Shown piece after piece: positions 13,929 to 30,854 of a DNA stretch of 32,000 nt (positions within the stretch are counted from its first letter, which is position 1; every line of letters starts with the position of its first letter). The notes below the pieces were generated by a model. The model was not told the DNA's origin. It did not search any database and worked only from the letters and a program-made list of their open reading frames with translations. The DNA is taken from contig OZ245049.1 of the NCBI GenBank assembly GCA_965224465.1, forward strand, positions 4,440,001-4,472,000, in the 5' to 3' direction. The position numbers and the translations under genes were made by a program. The DNA is from Flavobacteriaceae bacterium (GTDB lineage Bacteria > Bacteroidota > Bacteroidia > Flavobacteriales > Flavobacteriaceae).

Positions 13929-13990
13929 TGTGATTTGTGTTTGATTATTTGTTGATTAGTTTGTGATTTTAATTTCTCGAAGTCTGACCT

Positions 13991-16781: not shown

Positions 16782-17633
16782 ATGAGAACTTTAGAACTCG
16801 AAACATATATTATAGATAAAAAAGTGTACAAATATGTATCTAAGTCTATAGTAGCAACAGAAAAAATGATGATGAAAAACTCATCAGAAGCTATTGTGAA
16901 AAAAAAGTACATTAAGAAGAATTTTCATAATACAGGTGCTATTTTTAGAATTGACACCCTGTCTGAAACCCAAGGAAAAGAGAGTGCCACGGGTAAATTA
17001 AGTGCCGATTTAAATAGCTTAATGCATCATATAAGTGTAGGAACTACCGCAACAGGAGAACTGCAAACAATTTTCAACATGGATCAAGTGATCGATACAT
17101 GGGATGCTCTTAAAAAGCGATGGAAAAAAGAGGCCCCTAGGAAAAACAGAAAACAGGTACAAAAAACGATAGATGCAGTAGAAGAAAATTTAGAAAACGG
17201 TAGTTTTGTTAAAGACATCGCTAGCCAAGGCATGCTGCATTTTTTACTGAACGGTTTGTATACAAATTACGGCAAGGATAATTGTATCGTGATCGCAAGA
17301 GATTTGAATAAATTTTTAGTAACACAACCATTGCCTTTAAATATTACCTATAAAATTGTAGCGTATGATAGGCTAAGCAAAGCCATGATAATTGAAGGCG
17401 AAGGGGAAGTTGCAGAAGAACGCCTTAACAAAAAAGAATTAACCCATTTTATACGATCGTTAAAAGATCAAATAAATTTAAAAGTGGATCTTCAAGTTGT
17501 TTATAAAGAGCGTTTTGAATTTGATGGAAGCCATTGGTTAACAAGAGCAAGACAGAAAGTAAAAGTAACAATCCCGGGGTTTTACATGGCAGAAACGGAT
17601 CAAAAAATAGAAGAATTGAACGATGAGCAATAA
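16782..17633 (+). CDS. Hypothetical protein between vgrG and the PAAR-like effector (candidate adaptor/chaperone)
   Basis: 283-aa ORF that starts 8 nt after the vgrG stop and overlaps the effector start by 11 nt (ATGAGCAATAA). I recognise no family. Any function is inferred from position only. Confidence 0.5.
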   Translation: MRTLELETYIIDKKVYKYVSKSIVATEKMMMKNSSEAIVKKKYIKKNFHNTGAIFRIDTLSETQGKESATGKLSADLNSLMHHISVGTTATGELQTIFNMDQVIDTWDALKKRWKKEAPRKNRKQVQKTIDAVEENLENGSFVKDIASQGMLHFLLNGLYTNYGKDNCIVIARDLNKFLVTQPLPLNITYKIVAYDRLSKAMIIEGEGEVAEERLNKKELTHFIRSLKDQINLKVDLQVVYKERFEFDGSHWLTRARQKVKVTIPGFYMAETDQKIEELNDEQ

Positions 17634-18696
17634 AAAATACGTACCGCAAGGCGTGTATTTAGCTTGCGATAAAGGAACTGTACCAACCGAATTTAAAATA
17701 ACGAATAATAATAATGTTTTTTTGTTTGATGAGCCCGTTGCCAATACGGGAGATATGATCCCCAATGTTAATATACAACCCTTTGGAGCCTGTAGCGTAA
17801 AATATGGAAACCCTTGCGTACCTGTGCCAACTGTTTGGCAAGGTTTTGAAGATGGTATATTTATTGGTAACTTTAACCCATTATTAGAAGACTCCGTGAT
17901 GCAATGTGGTGTAGGCGGAAAAATAGAAATACATTACTCGCTAGAAGATGCCCAAGCAGCATGTGGCGATGATGGAATGAGTTTCTGGGAAATAGTAGCT
18001 GCCACGGTATTGGTAGTAGCAGCAGTCGCATTAATTGTGATTACAGGAGGAGCTGTTATAGCGGCAGTAACTGCTGTAAGTGCTGCGACAGGTGCATTGG
18101 CAACTACAATAGCTGTAGGTGTTGTGGCATTAGAAGGGTTTGGTTTGTATTGTGAAGTAAAAGCATTATACGACTATACCGAAGACGGAGACGAAGAAGC
18201 ATTGTTTAAAGGTGTAGCCTTAGGTTTTTTGTTTTTAGGAGCAGGGAAAGTTGTTGAGAAAGGGTTTAGGGCACTTAAAAACAGTAAAGCCATTGTCGAA
18301 GTAACAGAACAGGTTACTAAGAAAATAAGTAAAAGGCTACAGTTTTTAGGAAGAACACCTGGGAAATCCTCTAAAACAGGCAGAGAAGTTTTTGAAAGAA
18401 TGTTAAACGGAAAACCTCCTACTGCAAGAGTTAAAAGAATAGGAAAAAAAGAAATAAAAGAATTTTGGGATTATGATAATCAAAAATGGAGAAATATAAA
18501 AGAAGCAGATATGGGGCATATTGAGGATGCCGTTTCGTATTGGAATAACACAGGAAGATACCTAGGTGCAAAATCTAAAGAGGTACGTAAATGGATGTTG
18601 GACTCAGATAATTATGTTTATGAGTATTTTAGAACGAATAGATCAAAAGGCGCAATATTAGGAAAAACAACAACTTATTTACCTCCAATTAATTAA
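17623..18696 (+). CDS. T6SS polymorphic effector: DUF4280/PAAR-like domain + multi-TM segment + C-terminal GH-E-like HNH/EndoVII nuclease toxin (CT type A)
   Basis: The N-terminal ~105 aa fit the DUF4280 pattern (YVPQGVYLACDKG, PFGAC, NPCVPVPTVW, MQCGVGGKIEI). An Ala/Val/Gly-rich hydrophobic run follows (FWEIVAATVLVVAAVALIVITGGAVIAAVTAVSAATGALATTIAVGVVAL), then the junction helix ALFKGVALGFLFLGAGKVVEKG. The C-terminal ~145 aa carry DMGHIED...NYVYEYFRTNRSKG, as in the GH-E family. Confidence 0.8.
   Translation: MSNKKYVPQGVYLACDKGTVPTEFKITNNNNVFLFDEPVANTGDMIPNVNIQPFGACSVKYGNPCVPVPTVWQGFEDGIFIGNFNPLLEDSVMQCGVGGKIEIHYSLEDAQAACGDDGMSFWEIVAATVLVVAAVALIVITGGAVIAAVTAVSAATGALATTIAVGVVALEGFGLYCEVKALYDYTEDGDEEALFKGVALGFLFLGAGKVVEKGFRALKNSKAIVEVTEQVTKKISKRLQFLGRTPGKSSKTGREVFERMLNGKPPTARVKRIGKKEIKEFWDYDNQKWRNIKEADMGHIEDAVSYWNNTGRYLGAKSKEVRKWMLDSDNYVYEYFRTNRSKGAILGKTTTYLPPIN
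18154..18264 (+). repeat. R0: recombination-homology segment inside the expressed effector gene
   Basis: 18190..18264 (GACGAAGAAGCATTGTTTAAAGGTGTAGCCTTAGGTTTTTTGTTTTTAGGAGCAGGGAAAGTTGTTGAGAAAGG) recurs essentially unchanged in R1 to R8. Weaker in-frame homology extends back to about 18154. Confidence 0.85.
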
Positions 18697-18713
18697 AATA
18701 AAAAATTTTTAAT

Positions 18714-19160
18714 ATGAAAGAATTCAGTAATGAAATAGAAAATAAAATCGATAATTTTTTAAGTGAATCTTCTGAATATTACGAGAAAGGAAATATTATA
18801 AAATCGGGTAATTACCTTGTAAAGGCATATAAGATAATACCTCAGCCTAGAGAGAAATATAATGAAAGCTATAACTATTGTTCATATGTTTTAGATTATA
18901 TTTTAGATGAAGAATATGAGGTTAATAATGCTTTAAAGTGGTTACAAGAACTAGAACTGATAGCAAATTTTCAAAAAACATGGGAAGGAAGCTATGAGTT
19001 TTATGCAGCAAAAACATATTTTGTAATAGGACAATTTGAGAAGGCAATAGAATATTTTGATAAGTGTATTGAAATAGGAAAAGGGATGAGATATTTTGAA
19101 GATGAAGATCCTAAATACAAAGATTTTTATCTAAATCCTGAAAAATACACAAATGAATGA
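18714..19160 (+). CDS. Variable helical-repeat protein, candidate immunity/accessory (allele 1 of 3)
   Basis: 148 aa. Homologous but strongly diverged from 27401..27853 and 30855..31295, except for the shared C-terminus RYFE.E..KYKDFYLNPEKYTNE. Its stop overlaps the next start (ATGAATGA). Confidence 0.6.
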   Translation: MKEFSNEIENKIDNFLSESSEYYEKGNIIKSGNYLVKAYKIIPQPREKYNESYNYCSYVLDYILDEEYEVNNALKWLQELELIANFQKTWEGSYEFYAAKTYFVIGQFEKAIEYFDKCIEIGKGMRYFEDEDPKYKDFYLNPEKYTNE

Positions 19161-19611
19161 ATTAAATAACGGTCTTTATTTAACAGTAGAAGAACTTAAC
19201 GAAGAAGGCAATGACTTATTCGAAAAAGAGCAATTTTTAGATGCCTTAAAGAAATATGAACAAGCATTAAATTTACTTCCTATTCCAAAAACAAACTGGG
19301 AAGCAAGCACATGGCTTTATACGAGCATAGCAGATGTGTATTTTTCAATTAATGATTTAGAAATAGCCAAAAACAATTATTACAATGCTCTTAATTGCCC
19401 AGAAGGTATGGGCAACGCATATATTCATTTTAGTTTAGGTCAAGTTTTATTTCTACTAGGAGAGATTGATAAGTCTAGACAATCATTATTGCGTAGCTAT
19501 ATGTTAGAAGGGGAGGATATATTTAAAGATGAAGACCCAAAATTTAGAAAAAGTATTGAAAATTATTTAAAACCTCCGCCAAAAAAATCACGTTTTTTAT
19601 TAGATGATTAA
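19153..19611 (+). CDS. TPR-like protein, candidate immunity for CT type A; carries the KKSRFLLDD tail
   Basis: 152 aa with TPR-like helices (EEGNDLFEKEQFLDALKKYEQALNLLP; ADVYFSINDLEIAKNNYYNAL). Nearly identical copies lie at 27846..28304 and 31288..31746. Confidence 0.6.
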   Translation: MNELNNGLYLTVEELNEEGNDLFEKEQFLDALKKYEQALNLLPIPKTNWEASTWLYTSIADVYFSINDLEIAKNNYYNALNCPEGMGNAYIHFSLGQVLFLLGEIDKSRQSLLRSYMLEGEDIFKDEDPKFRKSIENYLKPPPKKSRFLLDD

Positions 19612-19750
19612 TTAAGGTAGTATAGTATTTTTGAAATACAGAAGTAAATACCCTTTATGATTATAGCCAAGATAGTGACGAAGAAGCATTGTTTAAAGGT
19701 GTAGCCTTAGGTTTTTTGTTTTTAGGAGCAGGGAAAGTTGTTGAGAAAGG
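19582..19750 (+). repeat. R1 inter-cassette direct repeat (~170 bp)
   Basis: Spans the last 10 codons of the upstream ORF (KKSRFLLDD*), the conserved spacer TTAATTAAGGTAGTATAGTATTTTTGAAATACAGAAGTAAATACCCTTTATGATTATAGCCAAGATAGT, and the 74-nt core shared with R0. Confidence 0.9.
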
Positions 19751-20243
19751 ACTTAAATCATTAAAATTTACAGATCAAGTTCTTGATGTTGCTAATGCGA
19801 CAAACAAACAAAAAGGTAATTTTGGAGAGATAAAAGCAGCTGCTAACCTGTCAAAAAATAAGAAGTTAAAAAGTGCAGGGTATGACCTGACAAGAATTGG
19901 TGATAAAGCCCCAACAGGATTTAATAATACCATTAAAAAAGGAATTGACGGTTTGTACGAAAACGCAACTCCACCACCTCAATTTGTTATCGATGAGGCA
20001 AAATATGGGACATCTAAGTTAAGTAAAACAGTTGATGGGAATAAACAAATGTCTGATGGATGGATAGAAGCTAATGATTATAAAAGGTTAACTGATCAAG
20101 TAGATGAAGATAAGGCTAGAGAGATCATTAGAGCGATGGAAAACGGAGAAGTAGAAAAAATATTATCTAACATAGATGAATCAGGAAATGTAGTTACAAA
20201 AAGTTTAGATGAATTAGGTAAAATAATAGGTGATTGGCCGTAA
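19689..20243 (+). CDS. Orphan toxin cassette O1: CT type B, PD-(D/E)xK restriction-endonuclease-fold nuclease-like (possibly PoNe-like)
   Basis: The frame is open from 19635 and the track start is a TTG. It begins with the junction helix FKGVALGFLFLGAGKVVEKG. Candidate catalytic pattern is GNFGE ... GIDGLYE ... VIDEAKYG (D...ExK). No N-terminal trafficking domain. Confidence 0.6.
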   Translation: MFKGVALGFLFLGAGKVVEKGLKSLKFTDQVLDVANATNKQKGNFGEIKAAANLSKNKKLKSAGYDLTRIGDKAPTGFNNTIKKGIDGLYENATPPPQFVIDEAKYGTSKLSKTVDGNKQMSDGWIEANDYKRLTDQVDEDKAREIIRAMENGEVEKILSNIDESGNVVTKSLDELGKIIGDWP

Positions 20244-20257
20244 AATTAAATATAATA

Positions 20258-21046
20258 ATGAATATTAGAGATAGATTAAACACTCAAGAAAGGTATCAAG
20301 AAATAATTGACAAAAAAACTCAATATATTAATGAAGATTTAATTAGAATTCAAGAAAGAAAAGAAGATGAAAAAAATAACATTCAACAATATCCAAAACC
20401 AAATATTAAGATTATTAAATCTATCTCAAACTCTTTAGTAGGGAAATATATAAATTTATTACAAGCAGAGTATTCTGTTGGTAGTGATTTTATTAAAATT
20501 AAAGAGATCTTTAGTCAGTTATTAGGTTCAATGGAAATTTCTTGGAATTTAAAATCAGTTGAAGATTTTAAGCATGGCTTTGATGAAGATCCGTATTACA
20601 CAACAGATAATTACCAGCAAATTTTGACCTTAGTAAGTTTGGGGGTTTTATTAGAGGTTGGTAATGCCGATTTTGATAAAATAATAAAAATACGTGATAA
20701 GGTAAAAAATTCAGATCAACTATTGGATTTTTTAATAAACTACCGTGTTAAAAGAGAATTTAAAAAGACTCTATTGAAATATAATAAATATACAAATATT
20801 CAGCAAATTTTAGATGTTCAAGATAAAACAGAAGTTATAAAATCTTTAAAAAAATATCTTTCAAAGCAATGGTTTAAAGATTTCGGAAAAATGGCAAATG
20901 CAGAAACTCATAAAAGCAAGTGGAATATTCATACAGGTTATTGGAGTTGGGAAGCAGGTGCAATAGCAAAAATCCTAAATTTAGATGATAGTAGTTTAAA
21001 AGATCAACAATACTACCCTTATGATATGGTACATTTTAAAGATTAA
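20258..21046 (+). CDS. Candidate immunity protein for CT type B (DUF1911/PoNi-like, tentative)
   Basis: I place the start at MNIRDRLNTQERYQE by homology with the start of 28961..29707; the track start at 20234 is a TTG. The C-terminal HKSKWNIHTGYWSWEAGAIAKILNLDDSSLKDQQYYPYDMV resembles the DUF1911 C-terminus as I recall it. Confidence 0.55.
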   Translation: MNIRDRLNTQERYQEIIDKKTQYINEDLIRIQERKEDEKNNIQQYPKPNIKIIKSISNSLVGKYINLLQAEYSVGSDFIKIKEIFSQLLGSMEISWNLKSVEDFKHGFDEDPYYTTDNYQQILTLVSLGVLLEVGNADFDKIIKIRDKVKNSDQLLDFLINYRVKREFKKTLLKYNKYTNIQQILDVQDKTEVIKSLKKYLSKQWFKDFGKMANAETHKSKWNIHTGYWSWEAGAIAKILNLDDSSLKDQQYYPYDMVHFKD

Positions 21047-21051
21047 TAATA

Positions 21052-21606
21052 ATGAGTTACATTTTAGAACTATCTTATTTATTAGTGAATAAGGATCAGA
21101 AAGATCAAAAAAACATTCAAAAAGAAGTAAAACTATCTGTCAATAAACCTAAAGAATACTTTTCCTTATTTGCAAGTGATTTAGCAGAAAGAGGTATTGA
21201 GAAGCCAATTGTTGAATTGCCTTGGTTTGCAATGATTAATGGATTGTATCGTGAGGGGTTTCTACAAGAATTAGATTGGAAATCTTATCCTGAAGATTTT
21301 GTAGAAGCGACTTTAGCGTTAATTAAATGTCATTCAAATTCTAAGCAAATAAAAAATCAACTCCTAGATTTAGAATTTTTAAATAATGATTTAGAAGTAG
21401 AAGAAGTTATTATAAAAATTAATAAGGTACTACAAGAATTCAATATTTTACTAATTATTATTGATATAGATAGTGATAGTTATCTTTTAAATAGGATCGA
21501 ATTTGATAAAAAAGAAAGAGTTTTAGAGTTAGTTTCCTTTTTAGGTTACGGTAAAATTAAGATATATCGTAACAAAAAGAAGAGCCGTTTTTTATTAGAC
21601 GAATAA
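21052..21606 (+). CDS. Hypothetical cassette-terminal protein (second putative immunity/accessory); KKSRFLLDE tail
   Basis: 184 aa. Differs at 2 residues from 29713..30267. No family recognised. Confidence 0.5.
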   Translation: MSYILELSYLLVNKDQKDQKNIQKEVKLSVNKPKEYFSLFASDLAERGIEKPIVELPWFAMINGLYREGFLQELDWKSYPEDFVEATLALIKCHSNSKQIKNQLLDLEFLNNDLEVEEVIIKINKVLQEFNILLIIIDIDSDSYLLNRIEFDKKERVLELVSFLGYGKIKIYRNKKKSRFLLDE

Positions 21607-21730
21607 CGGATTACAAGCAGTTCTTTGAAATACAGAAGTAAATACCCTTTATGATTTTAGTCAAGATAGTGACGAAGAAGCATTGTTTAAAGGTGTAGCC
21701 TTAGGTTTTTTGTTTTTAGGAGCAGGGAAG
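21574..21730 (+). repeat. R2 inter-cassette direct repeat (variant spacer)
   Basis: KKKSRFLLDE* tail, variant spacer CGGATTACAAGCAGTTCTTTGAAATACAGAAGTAAATACCCTTTATGATTTTAGTCAAGATAGT, then the core up to GGAGCAGGGAAG. Confidence 0.85.
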
Positions 21731-22165: not shown

Positions 22166-22750
22166 ATGAAAGAAATATTTAATAATATAATTACTTGGTT
22201 ACAGAAAAACAATAGGGACACCATGCTTAATCGTTTGTTAGACGGTAGTAATGATAATATTTATCGTAAAATATTTAAAAAAACAACATTAGAAATTCCA
22301 AATGAACTAATAGAGTTATATAAAATTAGTTTAGGTGTTAATATAAATGAAGGAGATAAACTAAATAGATTTCATTTTTTTCCAGGATTTTATTTTATGG
22401 CTATTGAAGAATCTATTTTAGATTATAATATCTTTAAAAACGATAGTCGTTGGAACAAAAATTGGTTTCCAATTTTTGCCAATGGAGGAGGTGATTTTTA
22501 TTGTGTAGATTGCTCAGATAAAAATAAATCTCCAATAGTTGAATTTATGTTAGATTATGATGATGAAGTAGTTCATGATAGTATTTTAAATATGCTAAAA
22601 ACTATTGATCAATGTTATAAAGAGAAAGTATATTATGTTGATGATGAAAATTATTTAGAAATAGATGATTATAAAAAAGAAAATAGCATTCGAAAAAGAA
22701 TAAATGGATATGATATTGTTAAAAAGAGCCGTTTTTTATTAGATGATTAA
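22166..22750 (+). CDS. SMI1/KNR4 (SUKH-1) family immunity protein; KKSRFLLDD tail
   Basis: 194 aa with IPNELIELYKISLG and WFPIFANGGGDFYCVD, typical of SMI1/KNR4. Starts 3 nt after the toxin stop. Confidence 0.7.
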   Translation: MKEIFNNIITWLQKNNRDTMLNRLLDGSNDNIYRKIFKKTTLEIPNELIELYKISLGVNINEGDKLNRFHFFPGFYFMAIEESILDYNIFKNDSRWNKNWFPIFANGGGDFYCVDCSDKNKSPIVEFMLDYDDEVVHDSILNMLKTIDQCYKEKVYYVDDENYLEIDDYKKENSIRKRINGYDIVKKSRFLLDD

Positions 22751-22791
22751 TTAAGGTAGTGTAGTTCTTTGAAATACAGAAGTAAATACCC
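22721..22791 (+). repeat. R3 left half (repeat split by the IS3 insertion)
   Basis: KKSRFLLDD* tail and spacer up to ..GAAGTAAATACCC, where the IS begins. Confidence 0.85.
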
Positions 22792-22851
22792 TGGAGTGTC
22801 TACATTTGTTGTGACGGTTTTATTAAGCCTATAAATTTATATATTTGAATT

Positions 22852-23136
22852 ATGGGAAGAAAAAAGCATGATAATGAGTTCAAGGTAATGATAGTAGAAC
22901 TATTAAAGTCCGGAATGAAATCAAAACAGATTAGTACAGATTACGAGTTGGATGTAAGTATGATATCTCGCTGGAAGCGAGAATACGAGATTAAATCGGG
23001 TGACTTTTCTAAAAAGAAAGAGTTAACCAATGATGAAGTGGAGCTAAAGGCGTTAAAAAAGGAACTTCGTAACGTAACTATGGAGCGTGATATATTAAAA
23101 AAGGCGGTAGGCATCTTTTCCAAGAGCGACAGATAA
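22852..23136 (+). CDS. IS3-family transposase OrfA (HTH/leucine-zipper part)
   Basis: 94 aa. MGRKKHDNEFKVMIVELLKSG...ISRWKREY and the coiled-coil ELKALKKELRNVTMERDILKKA are typical of IS3 OrfA. Confidence 0.85.
   Translation: MGRKKHDNEFKVMIVELLKSGMKSKQISTDYELDVSMISRWKREYEIKSGDFSKKKELTNDEVELKALKKELRNVTMERDILKKAVGIFSKSDR
23097..23103 (+). promoter_or_regulatory. Programmed -1 ribosomal frameshift site A AAA AAG (orfA to orfB)
   Basis: The heptamer is in the X XXY YYZ phase of orfA (codons TTA AAA AAG). The -1 frame is open from 23103 into orfB (GGRHLFQERQIRYKFIFNNGVSFPVEKMCKSMRVS). Confidence 0.7.
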
Positions 23137-23183
23137 GGTATAAATTCATTTTTAATAATGGAGTATCCTTCCCTGTTGAAAAG

Positions 23184-24017
23184 ATGTGCAAATCCATGCG
23201 CGTTAGTGAAAATGCATATTATCACTGGGTAAACAATAACGGTTCCAGCGTACATAATACAGCTAAAGTAGACTTGATGAATAGGATTACCTATCATTTT
23301 ATCGAAAGTAAAGAGATCTATGGGAGTCATAGAATTCAAAAAGCACTGGAGCGAGAAGGAGTGTATTATTCCCGTTCTTACGTGGCGCTGTTGATGAAAG
23401 AGATGGGTCTGCGAAGTGTTCTGAAGAAGGCTTTTGTGGTAACTACAGACTCTAAACACGATTATCCTATTGCTGAAAATATATTAAACAGAGAGTTTAC
23501 CAGTTTGAAAACAGGAGATAAATGGGTGTCAGATATCACCTATATACGCGTAAATGATGATTGGAATTACTTAACGACGATAATTGATTTAGCTGACAGA
23601 AAAGTGGTAGGTTGGTCATTAAGTGAAGACATGACCACCCAAAACACCATTGTAAAAGCGTGGATTGCGGCTAGAAGAACAAGAGCTATTAATCCAGGGT
23701 TTATCTTTCATTCAGACAGAGGAGTGCAATACGCATCTAATAAAATGACTGCTATTTTAAATTTTAATCAGAAAATAACACAAAGCATGAGTAGAAAAGG
23801 TAATTGTTGGGATAATGCTGTTGCTGAGAGCTTTTTTAAATCCATAAAGTATGAGTGGCTCTATCGTTTCAAGTACATGTCATATCTGCAATTACACGAG
23901 TCGATAAATGAATATATCTCTTGGTACAATATCAAAAGATTACATTCAAGTTTAGGGTATTTATCACCGCTTGAAATGGAAATAAAACTAAAAAAGAAAA
24001 TTAAGAAAGTGGCTTAG
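23184..24017 (+). CDS. IS3-family transposase OrfB (DDE/rve integrase core), probably made as an OrfAB fusion
   Basis: WVSDITYI (first D), FHSDRGVQYAS (second D) and NCWDNAVAESFFKSIKYEW (E) form the DDE triad. The frame is open upstream to 23103. Confidence 0.85.
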   Translation: MCKSMRVSENAYYHWVNNNGSSVHNTAKVDLMNRITYHFIESKEIYGSHRIQKALEREGVYYSRSYVALLMKEMGLRSVLKKAFVVTTDSKHDYPIAENILNREFTSLKTGDKWVSDITYIRVNDDWNYLTTIIDLADRKVVGWSLSEDMTTQNTIVKAWIAARRTRAINPGFIFHSDRGVQYASNKMTAILNFNQKITQSMSRKGNCWDNAVAESFFKSIKYEWLYRFKYMSYLQLHESINEYISWYNIKRLHSSLGYLSPLEMEIKLKKKIKKVA

Positions 24018-24048
24018 TAAAATAGTCACATATTTATTAGGAACTCCA

Positions 24049-24149
24049 CCCTTTATGATTGTAGCCAAGATAGTGACGAAGAAGCATTGTTTAAAGGTGT
24101 AGCCTTAGGTTTTTTGTTTTTAGGAGCAGGGAAAGTTGTTGAGAAAGGG
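24049..24149 (+). repeat. R3 right half
   Basis: CCCTTTATGATTGTAGCCAAGATAGT followed by the 74-nt core up to GAGAAAGGG. Confidence 0.85.
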
Positions 24150-24527
24150 TTTAGGGCTTTTAGAGCTATGAGAGCAGGCGATGAAATGGTAGAATTGGCA
24201 GACAAGGTAATAGATGTAGCTGATAATTTACCAATATTGAAATTTAGCAGGAAAAAAATGCCAAATATTGCTGATAATATTGATGAAGCTATTGAGACTG
24301 GGCAACCAAAAGTATTAGCGAGAGAAACTGATAAATCTGCTATCAGTGCAAATAGAAGGAATGCTTTAAAAGGAGTAGACGATGCAATAGATGGTAACTC
24401 ATTAGACGAATATCCTTTTGCTTCGTCAAAAGAAGGAGGTGTAGGAGCAAACGTAAAATCTGTACCTGTTAAAGAACAAAATATACAAGGAGGTACTATG
24501 TCTAGTTTTTATAAAAAAATGGTATAA
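24087..24527 (+). CDS. Orphan toxin cassette O3: CT type C' (NucA/NucB-like variant), C-terminus truncated by a frameshift in an A7 tract
   Basis: Same architecture as O2, with NSLDEYPFASSKEGG...EQNIQGG retained. After SSFY the frame ends (KKMV*). The +1 frame continues NGIKEGDKFIVEIID* to 24565, matching the O2 C-terminus ..DGDKFIVEIID*. Confidence 0.6.
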   Translation: MFKGVALGFLFLGAGKVVEKGFRAFRAMRAGDEMVELADKVIDVADNLPILKFSRKKMPNIADNIDEAIETGQPKVLARETDKSAISANRRNALKGVDDAIDGNSLDEYPFASSKEGGVGANVKSVPVKEQNIQGGTMSSFYKKMV

Positions 24528-24568: not shown

Positions 24569-25153
24569 ATGAAAGAAATATTTAATAATATAATTACTTG
24601 GTTACAGAATAATAACAGAGATATTATGCTTAGGAAATTACAAGGCGGTAGTAGATACGGTATTTATAATAAAATTTTAAAGGAAACTGAATTAGAAATT
24701 CCAAATGAATTGATAGAACTATATAAAATTAGCTTAGGAGTTGATATAAAAAAGGGAAACAAATTAGATGATTTTCACTTTTTTCCAGGGTTTTATTTTA
24801 TACCTATTGCTCGATCTATATTTTTTTATAATAACTACAAAGATGATAGTCGTTGGAACAAAAATTGGTTTCCAATTTTTGCCAATGGAGGAGGTGATTT
24901 TTATTGTGTAGATTGCTCAGATAAAAATAAATCTCCAATAGTTGAATTTATGTTAGATTATGATGATGAAGTAGTTCATGATAGTATTTTAAATATGCTA
25001 AAAACTATTGATCAATGTTATAAAGAGAAAGTGTATTATGTTGATGATGAAAATTATTTAGAAATAGATGATTATAAAAAGGAAAATAGTATTCGAAAAA
25101 GAATAAATGGATATGATATAGTTAAAAAGAGCCGTTTTTTATTAGATGATTAA
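24569..25153 (+). CDS. SMI1/KNR4 (SUKH-1) family immunity protein (variant); KKSRFLLDD tail
   Basis: 194 aa. The C-terminal ~100 aa are identical to 22166..22750, and the N-terminal ~95 aa have diverged. Confidence 0.7.
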   Translation: MKEIFNNIITWLQNNNRDIMLRKLQGGSRYGIYNKILKETELEIPNELIELYKISLGVDIKKGNKLDDFHFFPGFYFIPIARSIFFYNNYKDDSRWNKNWFPIFANGGGDFYCVDCSDKNKSPIVEFMLDYDDEVVHDSILNMLKTIDQCYKEKVYYVDDENYLEIDDYKKENSIRKRINGYDIVKKSRFLLDD

Positions 25154-25290
25154 TTAAGGTAGTATAGTATTTTTGAAATACAGAAGTAAATACCCTTTAT
25201 GATTATAGCCAAGATAGTGACGAAGAAGCATTGTTTAAAGGTGTAGCCTTAGGTTTTTTGTTTTTAGGAGCAGGGAAAGTTGTTGAGAAA
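25124..25290 (+). repeat. R4 inter-cassette direct repeat
   Basis: Same tail, spacer and core as R1. Confidence 0.9.
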
Positions 25291-25740
25291 GTAAGTGGTA
25301 AAATTATAAAATCTTTTACCAAAAGAGGAGATGAGATTATAGAAGCTAGTGCAAAAGGAATTGATGATGTAGTAGAACCTCTAGGTACATGTAGAGATGC
25401 TCAAGGGAAATTAAGAAATAAAGACGGTACTTTTGCTAAGGACTCAAATACTGTTAAATTTAATAGAAATACTTCTGAAAGAAAAAAAGCATTATTAAGA
25501 GATGCAAAAGACCCCAATAGTGGGTTATCTGATAGAGCTAGAAAACAAATTTTAGATTCAAATGGGGAAAATGTACCAAAAGGTCATGAAGTTTCTCATG
25601 AAATTCCATTATACACAGAAAAAACTGTTACTGGTAAAAAAGCTTTAGATAGAGCAAGTAATATGAAAACTCAGCAGAAAAACGTACATAGAAAAAGACA
25701 CAAAAAATGTGGAGACCAGTTTCATGATTTCCCATTCTAA
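25231..25740 (+). CDS. Orphan toxin cassette O4: CT type D, HNH/EndoVII (beta-beta-alpha-Me)-like nuclease domain (tentative)
   Basis: Starts (TTG) with FKGVALGFLFLGAGKVVEK. The C-terminal KGHEVSHEIPL...NMKTQQKNVHRKRHKKCGDQFH has His/Asn spacing compatible with an HNH-type active site. The subfamily is not resolved by eye. Confidence 0.45.
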   Translation: MFKGVALGFLFLGAGKVVEKVSGKIIKSFTKRGDEIIEASAKGIDDVVEPLGTCRDAQGKLRNKDGTFAKDSNTVKFNRNTSERKKALLRDAKDPNSGLSDRARKQILDSNGENVPKGHEVSHEIPLYTEKTVTGKKALDRASNMKTQQKNVHRKRHKKCGDQFHDFPF

Positions 25741-25753
25741 TAAAAATTAAATT

Positions 25754-26452
25754 ATGAATTTACAAAGTATTAAAGAAATGTATTTAAAAGTAATAAAATC
25801 GGATGATTTATCTTTTAAATTAGACTTCATTGATGAATTGATAAAAAACAATAATAATGAAATAATGAACTATCATTATGACTTATTAAAAGAGAAATCT
25901 GATAAGAAATTTTTTCAATATATTAGAAGTTCCTTTAAAAAAAGAGGAAGCGAAGCGGAATTATTTTTATTAAAAAAAATTCAAAAAGAAAAAGATTTGG
26001 ATTTAAAAGGTGAAGTTCTTCAAATTTTAGGAGGAATGAAATGTGAAGAGATAACACCAATAGCAATAGAACTTCTTTCCGAACCAGTTTTTAGTCTTCA
26101 ATACAAAGCCATAATTGTTTTAGGTTGGCTTGGTAAAAAAGAAGAAGTATTGATTCTTGATAAGGTAATGAATTCTAATAAAAATCAAGATTTGAGAGGA
26201 TACGCAGCTTCAGCTATGAGGCAAATATGGTATAACAATTTAAGATTAAACAAAAGTATTCTTAAATGTTATTATAATGCACTATTAGGTGATAATTCAT
26301 ATGTATTAGATAGCACAATCATAACTTGTACGCAAGATATTCTTAAAAAAAAATTTGGTATTAAGGAGTCTAATCATGGAGATATATCAGGAGATATCTC
26401 CATAGCAAAACCCAAAGCAATAATGGCACTTGAAAAATTTCTAAAAATATAA
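25754..26452 (+). CDS. HEAT/ARM-like repeat protein, candidate immunity for CT type D
   Basis: 232 aa with HEAT-like helical repeats (LQILGGMKCEEITPIAIELLSEP..LQYKAIIVLGWLGKKEEVLILDKVMNS..DLRGYAASAMRQI). Confidence 0.5.
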   Translation: MNLQSIKEMYLKVIKSDDLSFKLDFIDELIKNNNNEIMNYHYDLLKEKSDKKFFQYIRSSFKKRGSEAELFLLKKIQKEKDLDLKGEVLQILGGMKCEEITPIAIELLSEPVFSLQYKAIIVLGWLGKKEEVLILDKVMNSNKNQDLRGYAASAMRQIWYNNLRLNKSILKCYYNALLGDNSYVLDSTIITCTQDILKKKFGIKESNHGDISGDISIAKPKAIMALEKFLKI

Positions 26453-26454
26453 AT

Positions 26455-26829
26455 ATGATTGTTTTTTTATATGACTCAGAATTGGAGTATGAATTATTAG
26501 ATGAAGAATTACACCTAAATGAAGCCTTAACCGAGTTTTATGAATTATCTGAAATAGAAGGTTCATTTTTTGGTGTTAAAACCCTAGGTGAAGTAATACA
26601 ATTTTCTTGGGAAGATGTAGATAAATGGCTTATAGACTTACCTAATCCACCATCTTTTTTGAATTTCCAACGATATGCTAACTATGATGAATGTGTCGAG
26701 ACTATTAAAATAGTTTTTAATGGAGTTTCTCCAAAAGAAGTTAAGAATTTAACAAAAGTTAATATTAAGTCAGAAACTCTCGATGGTGTCCTTAAGAAAA
26801 AAAAATCACGTTTTTTATTAGATGATTAA
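26455..26829 (+). CDS. Hypothetical acidic cassette-terminal protein; KKSRFLLDD tail
   Basis: 124 aa, starting 2 nt after the upstream stop. No family recognised. Confidence 0.5.
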   Translation: MIVFLYDSELEYELLDEELHLNEALTEFYELSEIEGSFFGVKTLGEVIQFSWEDVDKWLIDLPNPPSFLNFQRYANYDECVETIKIVFNGVSPKEVKNLTKVNIKSETLDGVLKKKKSRFLLDD

Positions 26830-26969
26830 TTAAGGTAGTATAGTATTTTTGAAATACAGAAGTAAATACCCTTTATGATTATAGCCAAGATAGTGACGAA
26901 GAAGCATTGTTTAAAGGTGTAGCCTTAGGTTTTTTGTTTTTAGGAGCAGGGAAAGTTGTTGAGAAAGGG
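26800..26969 (+). repeat. R5 inter-cassette direct repeat
   Basis: Same tail, spacer and core as R1. Confidence 0.9.
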
Positions 26970-27401
26970 TTTAGGGCACTTAAAAACAGTAAAGCCATTG
27001 TCGAAGTAACAGAACAGGTTACTAAGAAAATAAGTAAAAGGCTACAGTTTTTAGGAAGAACACCTGGGAAATCCTCTAAAACAGGCAGAGAAGTTTTTGA
27101 AAGAATGTTAAACGGAAAACCTCCTACTGCAAGAGTTAAAAGAATAGGAAAAAAAGAAATAAAAGAATTTTGGGATTATGATAATCAAAAATGGAGAAAT
27201 ATAAAAGAAGCAGATATGGGGCATATTGAGGATGCCGTTTCGTATTGGAATAACACAGGAAGATACCTAGGTGCAAAATCTAAAGAGGTACGTAAATGGA
27301 TGTTGGATTCAGATAATTATGTTTATGAGTATTTTAGAACGAATAGATCAAAAGGCGCAATATTAGGAAAAACAACAACTTATTTACCTCCAATTAATTA
27401 A
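26907..27401 (+). CDS. Orphan toxin cassette O5: CT type A (GH-E-like), silent near-exact copy of the expressed toxin tip
   Basis: The protein is identical to residues ~194-357 of 17623..18696. By direct comparison of 18190..18696 with 26895..27401 I see one nucleotide difference, the synonymous GAC/GAT at 18601 versus 27306. Confidence 0.7.
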   Translation: MFKGVALGFLFLGAGKVVEKGFRALKNSKAIVEVTEQVTKKISKRLQFLGRTPGKSSKTGREVFERMLNGKPPTARVKRIGKKEIKEFWDYDNQKWRNIKEADMGHIEDAVSYWNNTGRYLGAKSKEVRKWMLDSDNYVYEYFRTNRSKGAILGKTTTYLPPIN

Positions 27402-27853
27402 TGAAAATAAAAATGGCAATTTTAGAAAAACACACACAAGATAAAATAGATAAATTATCTAATGAATCATACAAGCGTTATGAAGTTGGGGATAAGGAAA
27501 CTTCATATAGACTAATGGAAGAAGCGTGGGGAATGTATCCAAATCCAAAAGAGAATTGGAATGAGAGTTATAATACTGCTAAATACGCTTTAGATGATCT
27601 TTTAAAAAATGGTGAAATTGAAAAAGCAATGATTTGGTATACAAGAATGGTTAAAATTCATGAGAACCTTGGACTTTGGATAGGTTCATTTGAATATTAT
27701 TCAGGAAAAATATTCTTTGAAAAGAAGGATTTTAAAAAGTCCTTAGAATACTTTAATAAAATGTTTGAAATTGCTGGTCATAGATATTTTGAAGATGAAA
27801 ATTCAAAATACAAAGATTTTTATCTAAATCCTGAAAAATACACAAATGAATGA
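27401..27853 (+). CDS. Variable helical-repeat protein, candidate immunity/accessory (allele 2 of 3)
   Basis: 150 aa. The start overlaps the toxin stop (TAATG), and an alternative start lies at 27413 (MAILEK, compare 30855). Shares only the C-terminal block with the other two alleles. Confidence 0.55.
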   Translation: MKIKMAILEKHTQDKIDKLSNESYKRYEVGDKETSYRLMEEAWGMYPNPKENWNESYNTAKYALDDLLKNGEIEKAMIWYTRMVKIHENLGLWIGSFEYYSGKIFFEKKDFKKSLEYFNKMFEIAGHRYFEDENSKYKDFYLNPEKYTNE

Positions 27854-28304
27854 ATTAAATAACGGTCTTTATTTAACAGTAGAAGAACTTAGCGAAGAAG
27901 GCAATGACTTATTCGAAAAAGAGCAATTTTTAGATGCCTTAAAGAAATATGAACAAGCATTAAATTTACTTCCTATTCCAAAAATAAACTGGGAAGCAAG
28001 CACATGGCTTTATACGAGCATAGCAGATGTGTATTTTTCAATTAATGATTTAGAAATAGCCAAAAACAATTATTACAATGCTCTTAATTGCCCAGAAGGT
28101 ATGGGCAACGCATATATTCATTTTAGTTTAGGTCAAGTTTTATTTCTACTAGGAGAGATTGATAAGTCTAGACAATCATTATTGCGTAGCTATATGTTAG
28201 AAGGGGAGGATATATTTAAAGATGAAGACCCAAAATTCAGAAAAAGTATTGAAAATTATTTAAAACCTCCGTCAAAAAAATCTCGTTTTTTATTAGATGA
28301 TTAA
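27846..28304 (+). CDS. TPR-like protein, candidate immunity for CT type A; KKSRFLLDD tail
   Basis: 152 aa, with 3 residue differences from 19153..19611. Confidence 0.6.
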   Translation: MNELNNGLYLTVEELSEEGNDLFEKEQFLDALKKYEQALNLLPIPKINWEASTWLYTSIADVYFSINDLEIAKNNYYNALNCPEGMGNAYIHFSLGQVLFLLGEIDKSRQSLLRSYMLEGEDIFKDEDPKFRKSIENYLKPPSKKSRFLLDD

Positions 28305-28364
28305 TTAAGGTAGTATAGTTCTTTGAAATACAGAAGTAAATACCCTTTATGATTATAGCCAAGA
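28275..28364 (+). repeat. R6 left part (tail + spacer); homology breaks at 28364
   Basis: Matches the other repeats up to ..GATTATAGCCAAGA, then diverges. Confidence 0.85.
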
Positions 28365-28375
28365 CGGCAACTAAT

Positions 28376-28418
28376 AAATACATTCCCAAGTGACGGTTTA
28401 TAAATAGAATTATTTTTT
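28376..28418. repeat. Small dispersed repeat, family X, replacing the 5' part of the cassette homology core
   Basis: AAATACATTCCCAAGTGACGGTTTATAAATAGAATTATTTT matches 11470..11510. The canonical core resumes at about 28413 (TTTTTTGTTTTTAGGAGCAGGGAAAGTTGTTGAGAAAGG) and runs to 28451. Confidence 0.65.
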
Positions 28419-28947
28419 GTTTTTAGGAGCAGGGAAAGTTGTTGAGAAAGGACTTAAATCATTAAAATTTACAGATGAAGTTCTAGATGTTGCTAATGCG
28501 ACAAACAAACAAAAAGGTAATTTTGGAGAGATAAAAGCAGCTGCTAACCTGTCAAAAAATAAGAAGTTAAAAAGTGCAGGGTATGACCTGACAAGAATTG
28601 GTGATAAAGCCCCGACAGGATTTAATAATACCATTAAAAAAGGAATTGACGGTTTGTACGAAAACGCAACTCCACCACCCAAGTTTGTAATAGATGAAGC
28701 TAAGTTTAATACCGCTCAACTTGGTAAAACCAAAGATGGCAAGCAGATGAGTGATGGATGGTTGTTAGGAGAAAAAACAGGAAATAATAGGCTAATAGAT
28801 CAAGTAGGTGATGTAAAAGCTGATGAAATAATGGAAGCACTAGAAAATGGAGAAGTGGAAAAAATTATAAGCCGTGTTGACGTAAATGGGAATGTAGTTA
28901 GTAAACAATTAAATAGTGCAGGTAATATTATAGGTAATTGGCCATAA
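28417..28947 (+). CDS. Orphan toxin cassette O6: CT type B' (PD-(D/E)xK-like variant) with a degraded 5' junction
   Basis: Starts at TTG inside the junction helix (FLGAGKVVEKG). It is near-identical to O1 through ..VIDEAK, after which the C-terminal half diverges. Confidence 0.55.
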   Translation: MFLGAGKVVEKGLKSLKFTDEVLDVANATNKQKGNFGEIKAAANLSKNKKLKSAGYDLTRIGDKAPTGFNNTIKKGIDGLYENATPPPKFVIDEAKFNTAQLGKTKDGKQMSDGWLLGEKTGNNRLIDQVGDVKADEIMEALENGEVEKIISRVDVNGNVVSKQLNSAGNIIGNWP

Positions 28948-28960
28948 CTAATATATAAAT

Positions 28961-29707
28961 ATGAAATTAAGAGATGTATTAAATACAGAAGAAGGATATC
29001 AAGAAATAATAGATAAAAAAGATCGATTTATTAATTCTAGGTTTGATAAAATAAAAAAACTAAAAAAAGATGAAATTGATGGGATTCAACAATATCCTAA
29101 GCCTAATTATGACATTATTATAAGTTCCAAAAAAAGCATTCTAACTTTTTATCGTGAAATACTTGAGACTAAATATTCAGTAGGAGAAGAATTGTCTGTA
29201 ATTAAACAGTATTATTTAGATGTTATTAACTTTATAAATGATTCTAAAACTCATTCAGGTTATGCAAATATTTTAAGATTAATTTCTATGGGGATTATGT
29301 TTGAAATAAATGAAGATGAGTTTAAGATACTAATTGAATTAGTAGAGAGGTATTTAAAGAAAACAAAAGATGAAGATTTTTTAATTGATTTTTTAATTAA
29401 TTTCTATAAACCGGATTGGATACAATCCAATACTTTTTTAATAAATATACCTTATAAAAACATTAATGGTATTATAGAATTATCAAAAAAGAGTAAGATA
29501 GAAGCATCAGTGAAATTAAATACATATATATCAAAATGTTGGTACAGAGGTATTATTGAAGTCGAAACTCATAAAAGCAAGTGGAATATTCATACAGGTT
29601 ATTGGAGTTGGGAAGCAGGTGCAATAGCAAAAATCCTAAATTTAGATGATAGTAGTTTAAAAGATCAACAATACTACCCTTATGATATGGTACATTTTAA
29701 AGATTAA
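28961..29707 (+). CDS. Candidate immunity protein for CT type B' (DUF1911/PoNi-like, tentative), variant
   Basis: 248 aa. The last ~47 aa are identical to those of 20258..21046, and the remainder is strongly diverged. Confidence 0.55.
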   Translation: MKLRDVLNTEEGYQEIIDKKDRFINSRFDKIKKLKKDEIDGIQQYPKPNYDIIISSKKSILTFYREILETKYSVGEELSVIKQYYLDVINFINDSKTHSGYANILRLISMGIMFEINEDEFKILIELVERYLKKTKDEDFLIDFLINFYKPDWIQSNTFLINIPYKNINGIIELSKKSKIEASVKLNTYISKCWYRGIIEVETHKSKWNIHTGYWSWEAGAIAKILNLDDSSLKDQQYYPYDMVHFKD

Positions 29708-29712
29708 TAATA

Positions 29713-30267
29713 ATGTGTTACATTTTAGAACTATCTTATTTATTAGTGAATAAGGATCAGAAAGATCAAATAAACATTCAAAAAGAAGTAAAACTATCTG
29801 TCAATAAACCTAAAGAATACTTTTCCTTATTTGCAAGTGATTTAGCAGAAAGAGGTATTGAGAAGCCAATTGTTGAATTGCCTTGGTTTGCAATGATTAA
29901 TGGATTGTATCGTGAGGGGTTTCTACAAGAATTAGATTGGAAATCTTATCCTGAAGATTTTGTAGAAGCGACTTTAGCGTTAATTAAATGTCATTCAAAT
30001 TCTAAGCAAATAAAAAATCAACTCCTAGATTTAGAATTTTTAAATAATGATTTAGAAGTAGAAGAAGTTATTATAAAAATTAATAAGGTACTACAAGAAT
30101 TCAATATTTTACTAATTATTATTGATATAGATAGTGATAGTTATCTTTTAAATAGGATCGAATTTGATAAAAAAGAAAGAGTTTTAGAGTTAGTTTCCTT
30201 TTTAGGTTACGGTAAAATTAAGATATATCGTAACAAAAAGAAGAGCCGTTTTTTATTAGACGAATAA
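29713..30267 (+). CDS. Hypothetical cassette-terminal protein; KKSRFLLDE tail
   Basis: 184 aa, with 2 residue differences from 21052..21606. Confidence 0.5.
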   Translation: MCYILELSYLLVNKDQKDQINIQKEVKLSVNKPKEYFSLFASDLAERGIEKPIVELPWFAMINGLYREGFLQELDWKSYPEDFVEATLALIKCHSNSKQIKNQLLDLEFLNNDLEVEEVIIKINKVLQEFNILLIIIDIDSDSYLLNRIEFDKKERVLELVSFLGYGKIKIYRNKKKSRFLLDE

Positions 30268-30405
30268 CGGATTACAAGCAGTTCTTTGAAATACAGAAGT
30301 AAATACCCTTTATGATTATAGCCAAGATAGTGACGAAGAAGCATTGTTTAAAGGTGTAGCCTTAGGTTTTTTGTTTTTAGGAGCTGGGAAAGTTGTTGAG
30401 AAAGG
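30235..30405 (+). repeat. R7 inter-cassette direct repeat (R2-type spacer)
   Basis: KKKSRFLLDE* tail, spacer CGGATTACAAGCAGTTCTTTGAAATACAG.., and the core with one substitution (GGAGCTGGG). Confidence 0.85.
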
Positions 30406-30838
30406 GTTTAGGGCACTTAAAAACAGTAAAGCCATTGTCGAAGTAACAGAACAGGTTACTAAGAAAATAAGTAAAAGGCTACAGTTTTTAGGAAGAACAC
30501 CTGGGAAATCCTCTAAAACAGGCAGAGAAGTTTTTGAAAGAATGTTAAACGGAAAACCTCCTACTGCAAGACTTGAGGACGATTTTGGAAATGTAACTAA
30601 AGAGTTTTGGGATTCTGATAATAAGGTATGGAGGGATGTTATGGAAGCAGATATGGGGCATATTGAGGATGCCGTTTCGTATTGGAATAACACAGGAAGA
30701 TACCTAGGGGCAAAATCTACAGAGGTACGTAAGTGGATGTTGGATTCAGATAATTATGTTTATGAGTATTTTAGAACGAATAGATCAAAAGGCGCAATAT
30801 TAGGAAAAACAACAACTTATTTACCTCCAATTAATTAA
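30344..30838 (+). CDS. Orphan toxin cassette O7: CT type A' (GH-E-like variant)
   Basis: 164 aa. Identical to type A except for a central patch (RLEDDFGNVTKEFWDSDNKVWRDVMEADMGH versus RVKRIGKKEIKEFWDYDNQKWRNIKEADMGH) and one later K/T change. Confidence 0.65.
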   Translation: MFKGVALGFLFLGAGKVVEKGFRALKNSKAIVEVTEQVTKKISKRLQFLGRTPGKSSKTGREVFERMLNGKPPTARLEDDFGNVTKEFWDSDNKVWRDVMEADMGHIEDAVSYWNNTGRYLGAKSTEVRKWMLDSDNYVYEYFRTNRSKGAILGKTTTYLPPIN

Positions 30839-30854
30839 TAAGAAAAAACAAAAA

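Follow-up and report, generated by a model that had tools for sequence, protein, structure and literature searches.

A 32,000-nt stretch of the genome of a Flavobacteriaceae bacterium (contig OZ245049.1, positions 4,440,001 to 4,472,000; hereafter the window) carries an array of toxin and immunity genes whose direct repeats give four unrelated proteins the same C-terminal tail, KKSRFLLD[D/E]. Judged from its gene content, the locus is a type VI secretion system (T6SS) operon of the Flavobacteriaceae type, composed of vgrG, an adaptor-like gene and a DUF4280 effector gene, followed by at least eight silent orphan toxin–immunity cassettes within the window (Table 1). The effector matches DUF4280 at residues 9–104 (5.3e-19) and has vgrG two genes upstream; its C-terminal match to GH-E is weak (0.0025, under the curated cut-off). 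The vgrG operon stands alone, flanked by TonB-dependent receptor genes, and no T6SS core genes lie within the window. The same vgrG/284-aa/DUF4280-effector operon is found in related loci, with the 284-aa gene at the position of the adaptor-like gene in L002, L007 and L020. In L002 and L007, TssC, TssD and TssN genes adjoin it, suggesting that the operon in the window is a Bacteroidota-type T6SS effector operon; secretion by the T6SS and toxicity to target cells are predicted. Behind the operon, the cassettes run in the order A0 (expressed), B1, C2, IS3, C3, D4, A5, B6, A7 and B8, where IS3 is an insertion sequence (IS) and B8 exceeds the window. Each toxin fragment precedes its own immunity-type gene or genes (PoNi, SMI1/KNR4, TPR or HEAT, as predicted by Pfam). 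By its layout, the locus is of a known kind, a recombination-driven orphan cassette array, and the unusual part is the junction between the cassettes.

The orphan cassettes are parted by eight boundary repeats (R1–R8) of about 170 nt, each starting 27 nt ahead of the stop codon in a cassette's last open reading frame (ORF). The repeat search returned eight in-register copies of a 186-nt unit, including one within the expressed gene (18094–18279), and the 21-nt tail end CGTTTTTTATTAGAYGAWTAA occurs eight times, always on the + strand (19591, 21586, 22730, 25133, 26809, 28284, 30247 and 31726), with none expected from 100 shuffles. An earlier reading of the letters alone (the first-pass annotation) had described eight such repeats, the first 30 nt of which encode the last residues and the stop codon of the closing ORF. 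Both points hold, as the eight tail copies all lie on the + strand and all are read in frame. Aligning the boundaries with the expressed gene and with the related locus L006 divides the repeat into four parts. In R1, these are the nine tail codons and stop codon (19582–19611), an orphan-specific stretch of about 30 nt that is the most divergent among the copies (19612–19641), an effector-derived stretch that is about 70% identical to the expressed gene and near-identical among the orphans (19642–19676), and an exact core of 74 nt (19677–19750), identical to 18190–18263 of the expressed gene. In every copy, exact identity with the expressed gene sets in at 18190. The core length of 74 nt that had been given for all boundaries is right for R1, but the other copies share 53–83 nt, R5 shares 413 nt, and R6 retains only the right part. 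The cassette behind R5 (A5) carries the same toxin as the expressed gene. The repeat had also been placed at every boundary; eight copies are indeed present, but R3 is split by an IS3-family element, which lies between the tail and spacer on one side and cassette C3's core on the other, and R6 is partly replaced. In R6, 52 nt (28365–28416) have given way to an unrelated 45-nt repeated element, so that only the right part of the core is kept.

The 45-nt element (TAnTAAATAYATTYCCAAGTGACGGTTTAKAAATRGAATTATTTT) has three copies in the window, all on the + strand (8370–8414, 11466–11510 and 28372–28416). The first two lie shortly 3' of + strand stop codons, and the copy in R6 follows ...SQDGN-TAA-TAA and stands in place of the recombination core's left half. 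The element may be of a 3'-end or terminator-like kind, or else a small mobile repeat.

Upstream of the core, the orphan frame reads NTEVNTLYDYSQDSDEEALFKG directly after an in-frame stop codon, versus EVKALYDYTEDGDEEALFKG in the expressed gene; it is also read as NTEVNTLYDYSQDSDEEA, again behind the stop, versus EVKALYDYTEDGDEEA. Homology to the expressed gene starts near 19642, about 35 nt upstream of the exact core, and no DUF4280 or transmembrane part is present in the orphans. The orphans are 5'-truncated copies of the effector gene, as had been proposed from the homology of this upstream peptide. In R2 and R7, the second part of the repeat also aligns with the effector coding sequence (ATTACAAGCAG... 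versus ATTAGAAGGG..., 18/30), and the truncated effector copy starts 3 nt past the DUF6630 stop codon. There is therefore no separate spacer element, and the repeat joins one gene's end to the truncated start of another.

Because the repeat starts inside the last ORF of each cassette, four unrelated proteins end in KKSRFLLDD or KKSRFLLDE. The tail-bearing ORFs are a 152-aa TPR protein (TPR152, three copies), a 184-aa DUF6630 protein (two copies), a 194-aa SMI1/KNR4 protein (two copies) and a 124-aa protein (one copy). That these are otherwise unrelated, as first suggested from the translations, agrees with Pfam, which places them in different families or in none (no match for the 124-aa protein). 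The first-pass annotation had raised the possibility that nucleotide identity is no higher in the tail than in the rest of the ORFs; identity between the families is in fact confined to the tail. The PoNi, variable TPR and HEAT proteins of the array carry no tail. In an AlphaFold model of the DUF6630 protein of the window (mean predicted local distance difference test score, pLDDT, of 93.6), the last structured element ends at residue 170 and the last 14 residues are unstructured (pLDDT 78, then 51), which places the tail outside the folded part, and the tail is predicted to be disordered. It also lies outside the Pfam profile PF20335, which matches residues 9–167 with 88 bits (cut-off 27). 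A comparison of the DUF6630 fold with PDB gave no match at E <= 0.001. A programmed frameshift on T_TTT_TTA in the tail was considered and rejected, as the -1 frame stops after three further codons and never joins the orphan frame.

In three of the four families, the tail is absent from homologues in other genomes. SMI1/KNR4 gave 41 foreign matches, and none of the 19 that were read (36–69% identical) has the tail; the three closest (63–69%) end in ...RKKINGYT or ...RKKINEYA, versus ...RKRINGYDIV-KKSRFLLDD in the window. The tail is likewise missing from all 27 foreign homologues of TPR152 (up to 66% identical), most of which end in ...DPKYFxxIxxLI and four of which have a different, longer extension, and from the five homologues of the 124-aa protein (up to 68% identical), which end in ...ETLDTVLEKRE or similar. 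The tail-less SMI1, TPR and 124-aa homologues stop within 0–4 codons of the position where the tail starts. Foreign proteins of these three families (19, 27 and 5, respectively) thus stop where the tail begins, which bears out the earlier suggestion that the repeated unit has its boundary inside the coding sequence. As a separate observation, the TPR homologues P0196, P0198, P0199 and P0201 (from Lacinutrix, Cellulophaga and others) share an extension, ...KYIYKDGSRFYKDEDGNLIEDN, in which S-R-F is followed by acidic residues.

The exception is DUF6630. Among the 150 matches listed from an exhaustive profile-free search, most DUF6630 homologues end directly after a conserved GYGxIK, and a related extension is present in two distant ones (37–39% identical). 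One is P0048 of Aquimarina sp. AU58 (L007), which ends in GYGEIKPYTAPKKESRFLI (APKKESRFLI) and is encoded last in a full-length effector/PoNi/DUF6630 operon; the 10 kb downstream contain no copy of the effector core. P0109 (L006) ends in FGTIKPYYPPKIKTRFLLDE, also given as PPKIKTRFLLDE (PKIKTRFLLDE), and has a terminator and an orphan fragment downstream. The tail codons of both differ synonymously from those of the window (CGT/CGC/CGG and TTA/TTG). As two distant DUF6630 proteins share a related ending, one of them with no repeat downstream, the tail is most likely a native, disordered C-terminal extension of a DUF6630 subclade that was grafted onto the other families. According to the first-pass annotation, tails on homologues that lack the repeat would mark an ordinary family feature. 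Such a tail was found for DUF6630 only (P0048) and for none of the other three families, a result that identifies the tail donor and does not overturn the grafting interpretation. Three points weigh against a DUF6630 origin: only two outside proteins among the DUF6630 matches listed have a related tail, that of P0048 lacks the final D-D/E, and P0109 itself adjoins an orphan. The closest DUF6630 homologue, P0045, lies on a contig that ends 27 nt 3' of the gene. At the TPR152 junction, KPPPKKSRFLLDD resembles the PPK.../APKK... of P0109/P0048-type endings. Given this likeness, the graft there probably spans 12–13 codons, and the grafted stretch of TPR152 (12–13 residues) would be longer than in the other families.

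In the DNA collections scanned, the KKSRFLLD[D/E]-type ending is very rare. A search of the tail DNA against 185,579 species genomes, a set that excludes the source genome and its close relatives, gave one chance match, in a Nanoarchaeota metagenome-assembled genome. The degenerate RFLLD[DE]-stop pattern gave 12 loci in JGI metagenomes, all by chance (in-frame stops just upstream, or unrelated context), and nothing in viral contigs. The first-pass annotation had suggested a search of other genomes for tail-terminated ORFs; in these collections the scans gave chance matches only. A full-text literature search returned no paper mentioning DUF6630.

The repeat copies are mosaics. The Ser codon of the tail is AGC in R2, R3, R4 and R7 and TCA or TCT in R1, R5, R6 and R8, and the spacer 40 nt downstream of it reads TATTTTTG or GTTCTTTG; all four codon/spacer combinations occur. 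What had been described as two spacer variants is instead a mosaic of two left and two right halves. Cassettes of the same type are 97–100% identical over their last 300–700 nt, versus 40–65% in their middles. Over 413 nt, orphan A5 and the expressed toxin end are the same, and the A–B cassette pair is present three times. By their pattern, the mosaic repeats and cassettes are consistent with gene conversion and unequal crossing-over that start in the boundaries, and we infer that orphans may also exchange with the expressed gene, i.e. toxin switching. The joins of the grafts fall in A-rich Lys codons at the tail start, and those in L005, L020 and R6 of the window fall in T-runs beside TTTTTAGG (FLG) codons. 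Such positions would fit microhomology-driven joining.

The three A cassettes (18265–19160, 26970–27853 and 30407–31295) have identical or near-identical toxins, yet their first TPR proteins (148, 150 and 146 aa) are only 40–65% identical. The second TPR protein (152 aa) is 98–100% identical among them. The variable first TPR gene looks, from this comparison, like the target of diversification or replacement.

In related loci, these toxin ends belong to full-length effectors. L002 has a full-length DUF4280-NucA/NucB effector followed by a tail-less SMI1, and L007 (Aquimarina sp. AU58) a full-length B-type effector followed by PoNi and DUF6630. L020, from another Flavobacteriaceae genome, has a full-length D-toxin effector with HEAT and 117-aa proteins, and then an orphan A toxin with TPR147 and TPR138. 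In L020, the D and A cassettes end at native stop codons, which are followed by a terminator hairpin, AGCTTTTCAGAAATGAAAAGTTTTTT, and then by a truncated effector copy. Terminators of a hairpin and T-run follow the stop codons at the boundaries of L005, L006, L020 and L021. In L005 (2119–2200 and 3147–3230) and L020 (9083–9150), the terminator T-run is fused directly to the TTTTTAGG(C/T)GC(A/G)GG codons (FLGAG) of the truncated effector; this arrangement suggests T-tract microhomology joins, with a truncation point further downstream than in the window.

L021 (Zobellia laminariae, CP130738.1) is a related and far more varied array with RHS, AHH, PT-HINT, PoNi/DUF6630 and TPR cassettes. Its boundary element of about 220 nt is MITE-like (resembling a miniature inverted-repeat transposable element), with terminal inverted repeats of 27–30 nt and an internal terminator hairpin, at 791–884, 4073–4300, 5789–6011, 8447–8678, 9867–10098 and 14645–14738. 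The element starts 12–28 nt 3' of stop codons and so does not enter the ORFs.

To explain the junction in the window, we propose that a truncated effector copy was once joined directly behind the stop codon of a DUF6630 gene, the last gene of a toxin/PoNi/DUF6630 cassette. The left 30 nt of the repeat would then be the 3' end of DUF6630 and not effector-derived, and the DUF6630-end/effector joint would have become a portable boundary. New cassettes may have entered through two events, a crossover in the core and an illegitimate join of the microhomology type in the A-rich Lys codons, through which the last gene of the entering cassette would have lost its own stop codon (and its terminator, as present in related genomes) and gained the DUF6630 tail. 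The core (53–83 nt) would serve as homology for RecA-type recombination, which could fuse the expressed N-terminal delivery domain to any of the orphan toxin ends and bring along the matching immunity genes, and which could also duplicate, delete or homogenise cassettes. We regard this account as a whole, comprising the array, the DUF6630-derived portable joint and a passenger tail, as reasonably probable.

Table 1. Positions of the operon, cassettes and boundary repeats in the window, and contents of the cassette types
Feature	Position	Strand	Content
vgrG, 602 aa	14966..16774	+	First operon gene; Pfam Phage_base_V (2.7e-23), Phage_GPD, DUF2345
283-aa protein, adaptor-like by position	16782..17633	+	Between vgrG and effector; no Pfam match
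Expressed effector, 357 aa	17623..18696	+	DUF4280 (PAAR-like), hydrophobic segment, conserved junction motif, GH-E/HNH-like toxin (type A)
Recombination core of expressed gene	18155..18263	+	EVKALYDYTEDGDEEALFKGVALGFLFLGAGKVVEKG; 18190–18263 identical to orphans
Cassette A0 TPR genes	18714..19611	+	Variable, 148 aa, 18714–19160; conserved, 152 aa with tail, 19153–19611
R1	19582..19750	+	Boundary repeat, four parts; exact core 74 nt
Orphan cassette B1	19689..21606	+	Toxin fragment (184-aa ORF); PoNi, 270 aa (PoNi_N/PoNi_C); DUF6630, 184 aa (1.1e-24), ending KKSRFLLDE
R2	21577..21729	+	DUF6630-type: Ser codon AGC, DE ending, spacer CGGATTACAAGCAG; exact core 59 nt
Orphan cassette C2	21683..22750	+	NucA/NucB DNase fragment (159-aa ORF); SMI1/KNR4, 194 aa with tail
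R3	22721..24157	+	Left 22721–22791; IS 22792–24048; right 24049–24157, exact core 83 nt
IS3-family element	22792..24048		Inside R3, 3-bp CCC target duplication; orfA 22852–23136 (HTH_Tnp_1), orfB 23184–24017 (rve)
Orphan cassette C3	24087..25153	+	NucA/NucB fragment (146-aa ORF, 3' end shortened); SMI1/KNR4, 194 aa with tail
R4	25124..25291	+	Boundary repeat; exact core 73 nt
Orphan cassette D4	25231..26829	+	Toxin fragment (169-aa ORF); HEAT-repeat, 232 aa; 124 aa with tail
R5	26800..26968	+	Identity to expressed gene continues for 413 nt, 26895–27307
Orphan cassette A5	26907..28304	+	Toxin same as that of expressed gene; TPR, 150 aa; TPR, 152 aa with tail
R6	28275..28460	+	Tail and spacer intact to 28364; 28365–28416 replaced; core from 28417
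Orphan cassette B6	28417..30267	+	Toxin fragment (176-aa ORF); PoNi, 248 aa; DUF6630, 184 aa, ending KKSRFLLDE
R7	30238..30384	+	DUF6630-type; exact core 53 nt
Orphan cassette A7	30344..31746	+	Toxin A variant; TPR, 146 aa; TPR, 152 aa with tail
R8	31717..31885	+	Exact core 74 nt; followed by B-type orphan exceeding the window
Type A			GH-E-like toxin, variable TPR, TPR152; identity between copies: toxin ~100%, variable TPR gene 40–65%, last ~520 nt 98–100%
Type B			Toxin with no Pfam match, PoNi, DUF6630; identity between copies: last ~700 nt 100%
Type C			NucA/NucB DNase, SMI1/KNR4; identity between copies: last ~300 nt 97–100%
Type D			Toxin with no family assigned, HEAT protein, 124-aa protein

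Taken by itself, the tail is probably a passenger, a disordered appendage that is most simply regarded as tolerated. Several observations speak against such neutrality. The three grafted families all read the tail in the DUF6630 frame, for which the expectation under neutrality is about 1 in 27; either of the alternative frames would likewise reach a stop within 7 codons (KNHVFY and KITFFIR, each followed by a stop), and in 0 of 8 boundaries is the tail DNA present as untranslated sequence after a native stop codon. Between R1-type and R2-type tails, 7 of 27 nt differ, including the full AGC/TCA serine codon, yet only one of nine residues (D/E) is changed. In 200,000 simulations, 7 random changes left <=1 residue changed in 0.03–0.04% (P ~3e-4). 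Read in this way, the pattern of tail alleles points to selection on the peptide, possibly while the tail was still on DUF6630. The same allele pattern and the same three in-frame grafts, in which the native stop codon was replaced within 0–4 codons, can be claimed for a tail that acts as a functional C-terminal short linear motif, selected on whichever protein closes the cassette; here the repeat boundary would lie inside the ORF because the peptide is needed. Proposed roles are protein stability, partner binding (candidates being the conserved effector N-terminus, the adaptor-like protein and the TPR proteins) or positioning of the terminating ribosome for expression of the next cassette. 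In keeping with a motif, the spacer directly after the stop codon is far less conserved than the tail, the related endings in Aquimarina (L007) and L006 were kept through synonymous changes, and the disordered, exposed tail of the structural model resembles linear motifs. However, the tail tracks position and not function, since PoNi, the established immunity family for PoNe (PMC6688995), and the variable TPR and HEAT proteins do without it, and the same cassette types in L002 and L020 appear to work without a tail. Conservation at the peptide level may stem from the period on DUF6630, the RFLLD[DE]-stop pattern gave only chance matches in the metagenome and viral collections and a stricter pattern one chance match in the 185,579 species genomes, and the statistics are thin, with 8 copies and 2–3 alleles. 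We therefore consider a functional motif possible but unlikely. Somewhat less likely still is that KKSRFLLD[D/E] is a portable, selected tag within the recombination repeat, given to any cassette-closing gene and used by the cell, possibly for stability, for tethering to the constant effector part or the adaptor, or for fixing the ribosome stop, thereby permitting or preventing expression of the next silent cassette. If true, the recombination repeat would itself disseminate a peptide tag, which would be unusual; the evidence for this is suggestive but thin.

Other readings place the role of the boundary in its DNA. It could serve mainly expression, either because the terminators were replaced, permitting read-through from the vgrG promoter so that every orphan immunity gene is made, or because each cassette has an internal Bacteroidetes-type promoter. 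Terminator-like sites are found in 0 of 8 boundaries (five between 14000 and 32000, versus a shuffle mean of 6.4), and the boundaries of L005, L006, L020 and L021 all have hairpin and T-run terminators; with the joint in place of these terminators, one transcript could span the entire array. TAnnTTTG is the -7 promoter motif of Bacteroidetes, and TATTTTTG in R1, R4, R5 and R8 matches it. In the remaining four, GTTCTTTG occupies its place, a TTTG element 15–23 nt upstream is absent from all, and sigma-70-type sites are not enriched (80 found versus 87 expected). A role in expression leaves the start of the repeat inside an ORF unexplained, and is compatible with the portable DUF6630-derived joint without being an alternative to it; as the main purpose of the boundary we think it improbable. 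The co-oriented cassettes parted by a conserved repeat also bear a superficial likeness to mobile, integron-like or rAID-1-like cassettes, in which the repeat would be the attachment site of a site-specific recombinase, and Bacteroidales rAID-1 clusters do combine repetitive intergenic sequences with a XerD-like recombinase (bioRxiv 10.1101/471110). A scan of 26 ORFs of the window found no tyrosine or serine recombinase, with the array's 3' end lying beyond the window, and the sole recombination enzyme in the window is the IS3 transposase, whose element interrupts one repeat. The repeat folds no better than shuffled sequences (z -0.38 and -0.51), and the boundary repeat and spacer have no Rfam match at E up to 1; there is no sign of the structured RNA for which the first-pass annotation had suggested searching the spacer. 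Two short AT-only palindromes were seen by eye; the whole-window repeat search covered direct repeats only, with no dedicated search for inverted repeats at the boundaries. In addition, the repeat's right half is plainly taken from the effector gene, and variants are reshuffled along the repeat as homologous exchange predicts. An attachment site is hence very improbable, and homologous exchange through the DUF6630-end/effector joint is preferred.

Orphan toxin-end/immunity modules are present downstream of cdiA and mafB genes, as they are downstream of rhs genes. Like these systems, the locus has a full-length gene with a constant delivery part, a variable toxin end and an immunity gene, and downstream of it 5'-truncated copies that retain part of the constant region and are each paired with an immunity gene; full-length genes elsewhere (here in L002, L007 and L020) also bear these toxin ends. 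In Salmonella, orphan Rhs ends, rhs-CT(orphan), are brought into the main gene when homologous recombination follows a duplication, with an orphan homology of 522 nt at 95% identity (Koskiniemi 2014, PMC3967940). Homologous recombination thus moves an orphan end into the expressed gene in rhs systems, and the same step would apply here. Unlike in rhs systems, the carrier belongs to a T6SS of the Flavobacteriaceae type and is a small DUF4280 (PAAR-like) effector, and the shared homology is only 53–83 nt in comparison with the 522 nt in Salmonella. The boundary also differs from those of rhs, cdiA and mafB in entering the preceding ORF, so that unrelated proteins share a C-terminal tail. We know of no description of a tail-sharing boundary in these systems, and a full-text literature search for orphan cassette arrays with direct repeats gave no match.

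Neisseria pilE/pilS offers a further likeness, with one expressed gene and 5'-truncated silent copies whose exchange relies on short conserved stretches. Variation from pilS is a non-reciprocal conversion of an antigen that needs a G4-forming element; unlike the array here, it involves neither toxin–immunity exchange nor a shared tail on neighbouring genes. For the immunity-gene arrays of the Vibrio cholerae T6SS, sequential displacement through homology-facilitated illegitimate recombination has been proposed (Kirchberger 2017, PMC5361080). The window resembles these arrays in its growth behind a T6SS effector, in the proposed mechanism of one homologous anchor in the conserved upstream part and one illegitimate join downstream, and in mosaicism through frequent homologous recombination. 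In Vibrio, mostly immunity genes are kept and old effectors are displaced, whereas here complete toxin-end and immunity cassettes are joined by a uniform joint of ~170 nt, and the illegitimate join lies in the last codons of a gene. The rAID-1 clusters, defined by a 5' XerD-like recombinase, consist of immunity genes only (Ross 2019, bioRxiv 10.1101/471110). Like these clusters and integrons, the window has a long co-oriented array of immunity-type genes, in Bacteroidota, with repetitive sequences in between; unlike rAID-1, it has no such recombinase, contains toxin fragments, and has a gene fragment as its repeat and not an attachment site. PoNi is an experimentally shown immunity family for PoNe DNases, which also occur fused to DUF4280 (Jana 2019, PMC6688995). 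The B-type cassettes similarly carry PoNi (PoNi_N, PoNi_C) behind a toxin end, but the B toxin has no Pfam match and PoNi is followed by a third gene, DUF6630, the probable source of the tail.

Arrays of spare toxin ends and antidotes are already known as a means of changing weapons, mainly for Rhs, CdiA, MafB and Vibrio effectors. The window adds the same logic for small DUF4280 effectors of the Flavobacteriaceae-type T6SS, with very short homology, and a joint whose history can be read, in that the end of a DUF6630 gene most likely came to form part of the mobile boundary and was passed on to three proteins of unrelated families. On immunity-type proteins, a shared C-terminal motif can accordingly be a recombination scar and not a family feature, and gene callers and family models will propagate such scars.

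Two minor features of the window may be added. The orphan toxin ORF of C3 (24087–24527), beside the IS, ends in ...SSFYKKMV, versus ...SSFYQNNNIADGDKFIVEIID in C2, and by this ending looks like a decaying silent copy. Upstream of vgrG lies ~1 kb of non-coding DNA (13929–14965), a region with no Rfam match, in which two similar 37-nt segments (14000–14036 and 14413–14449) are 81% identical.

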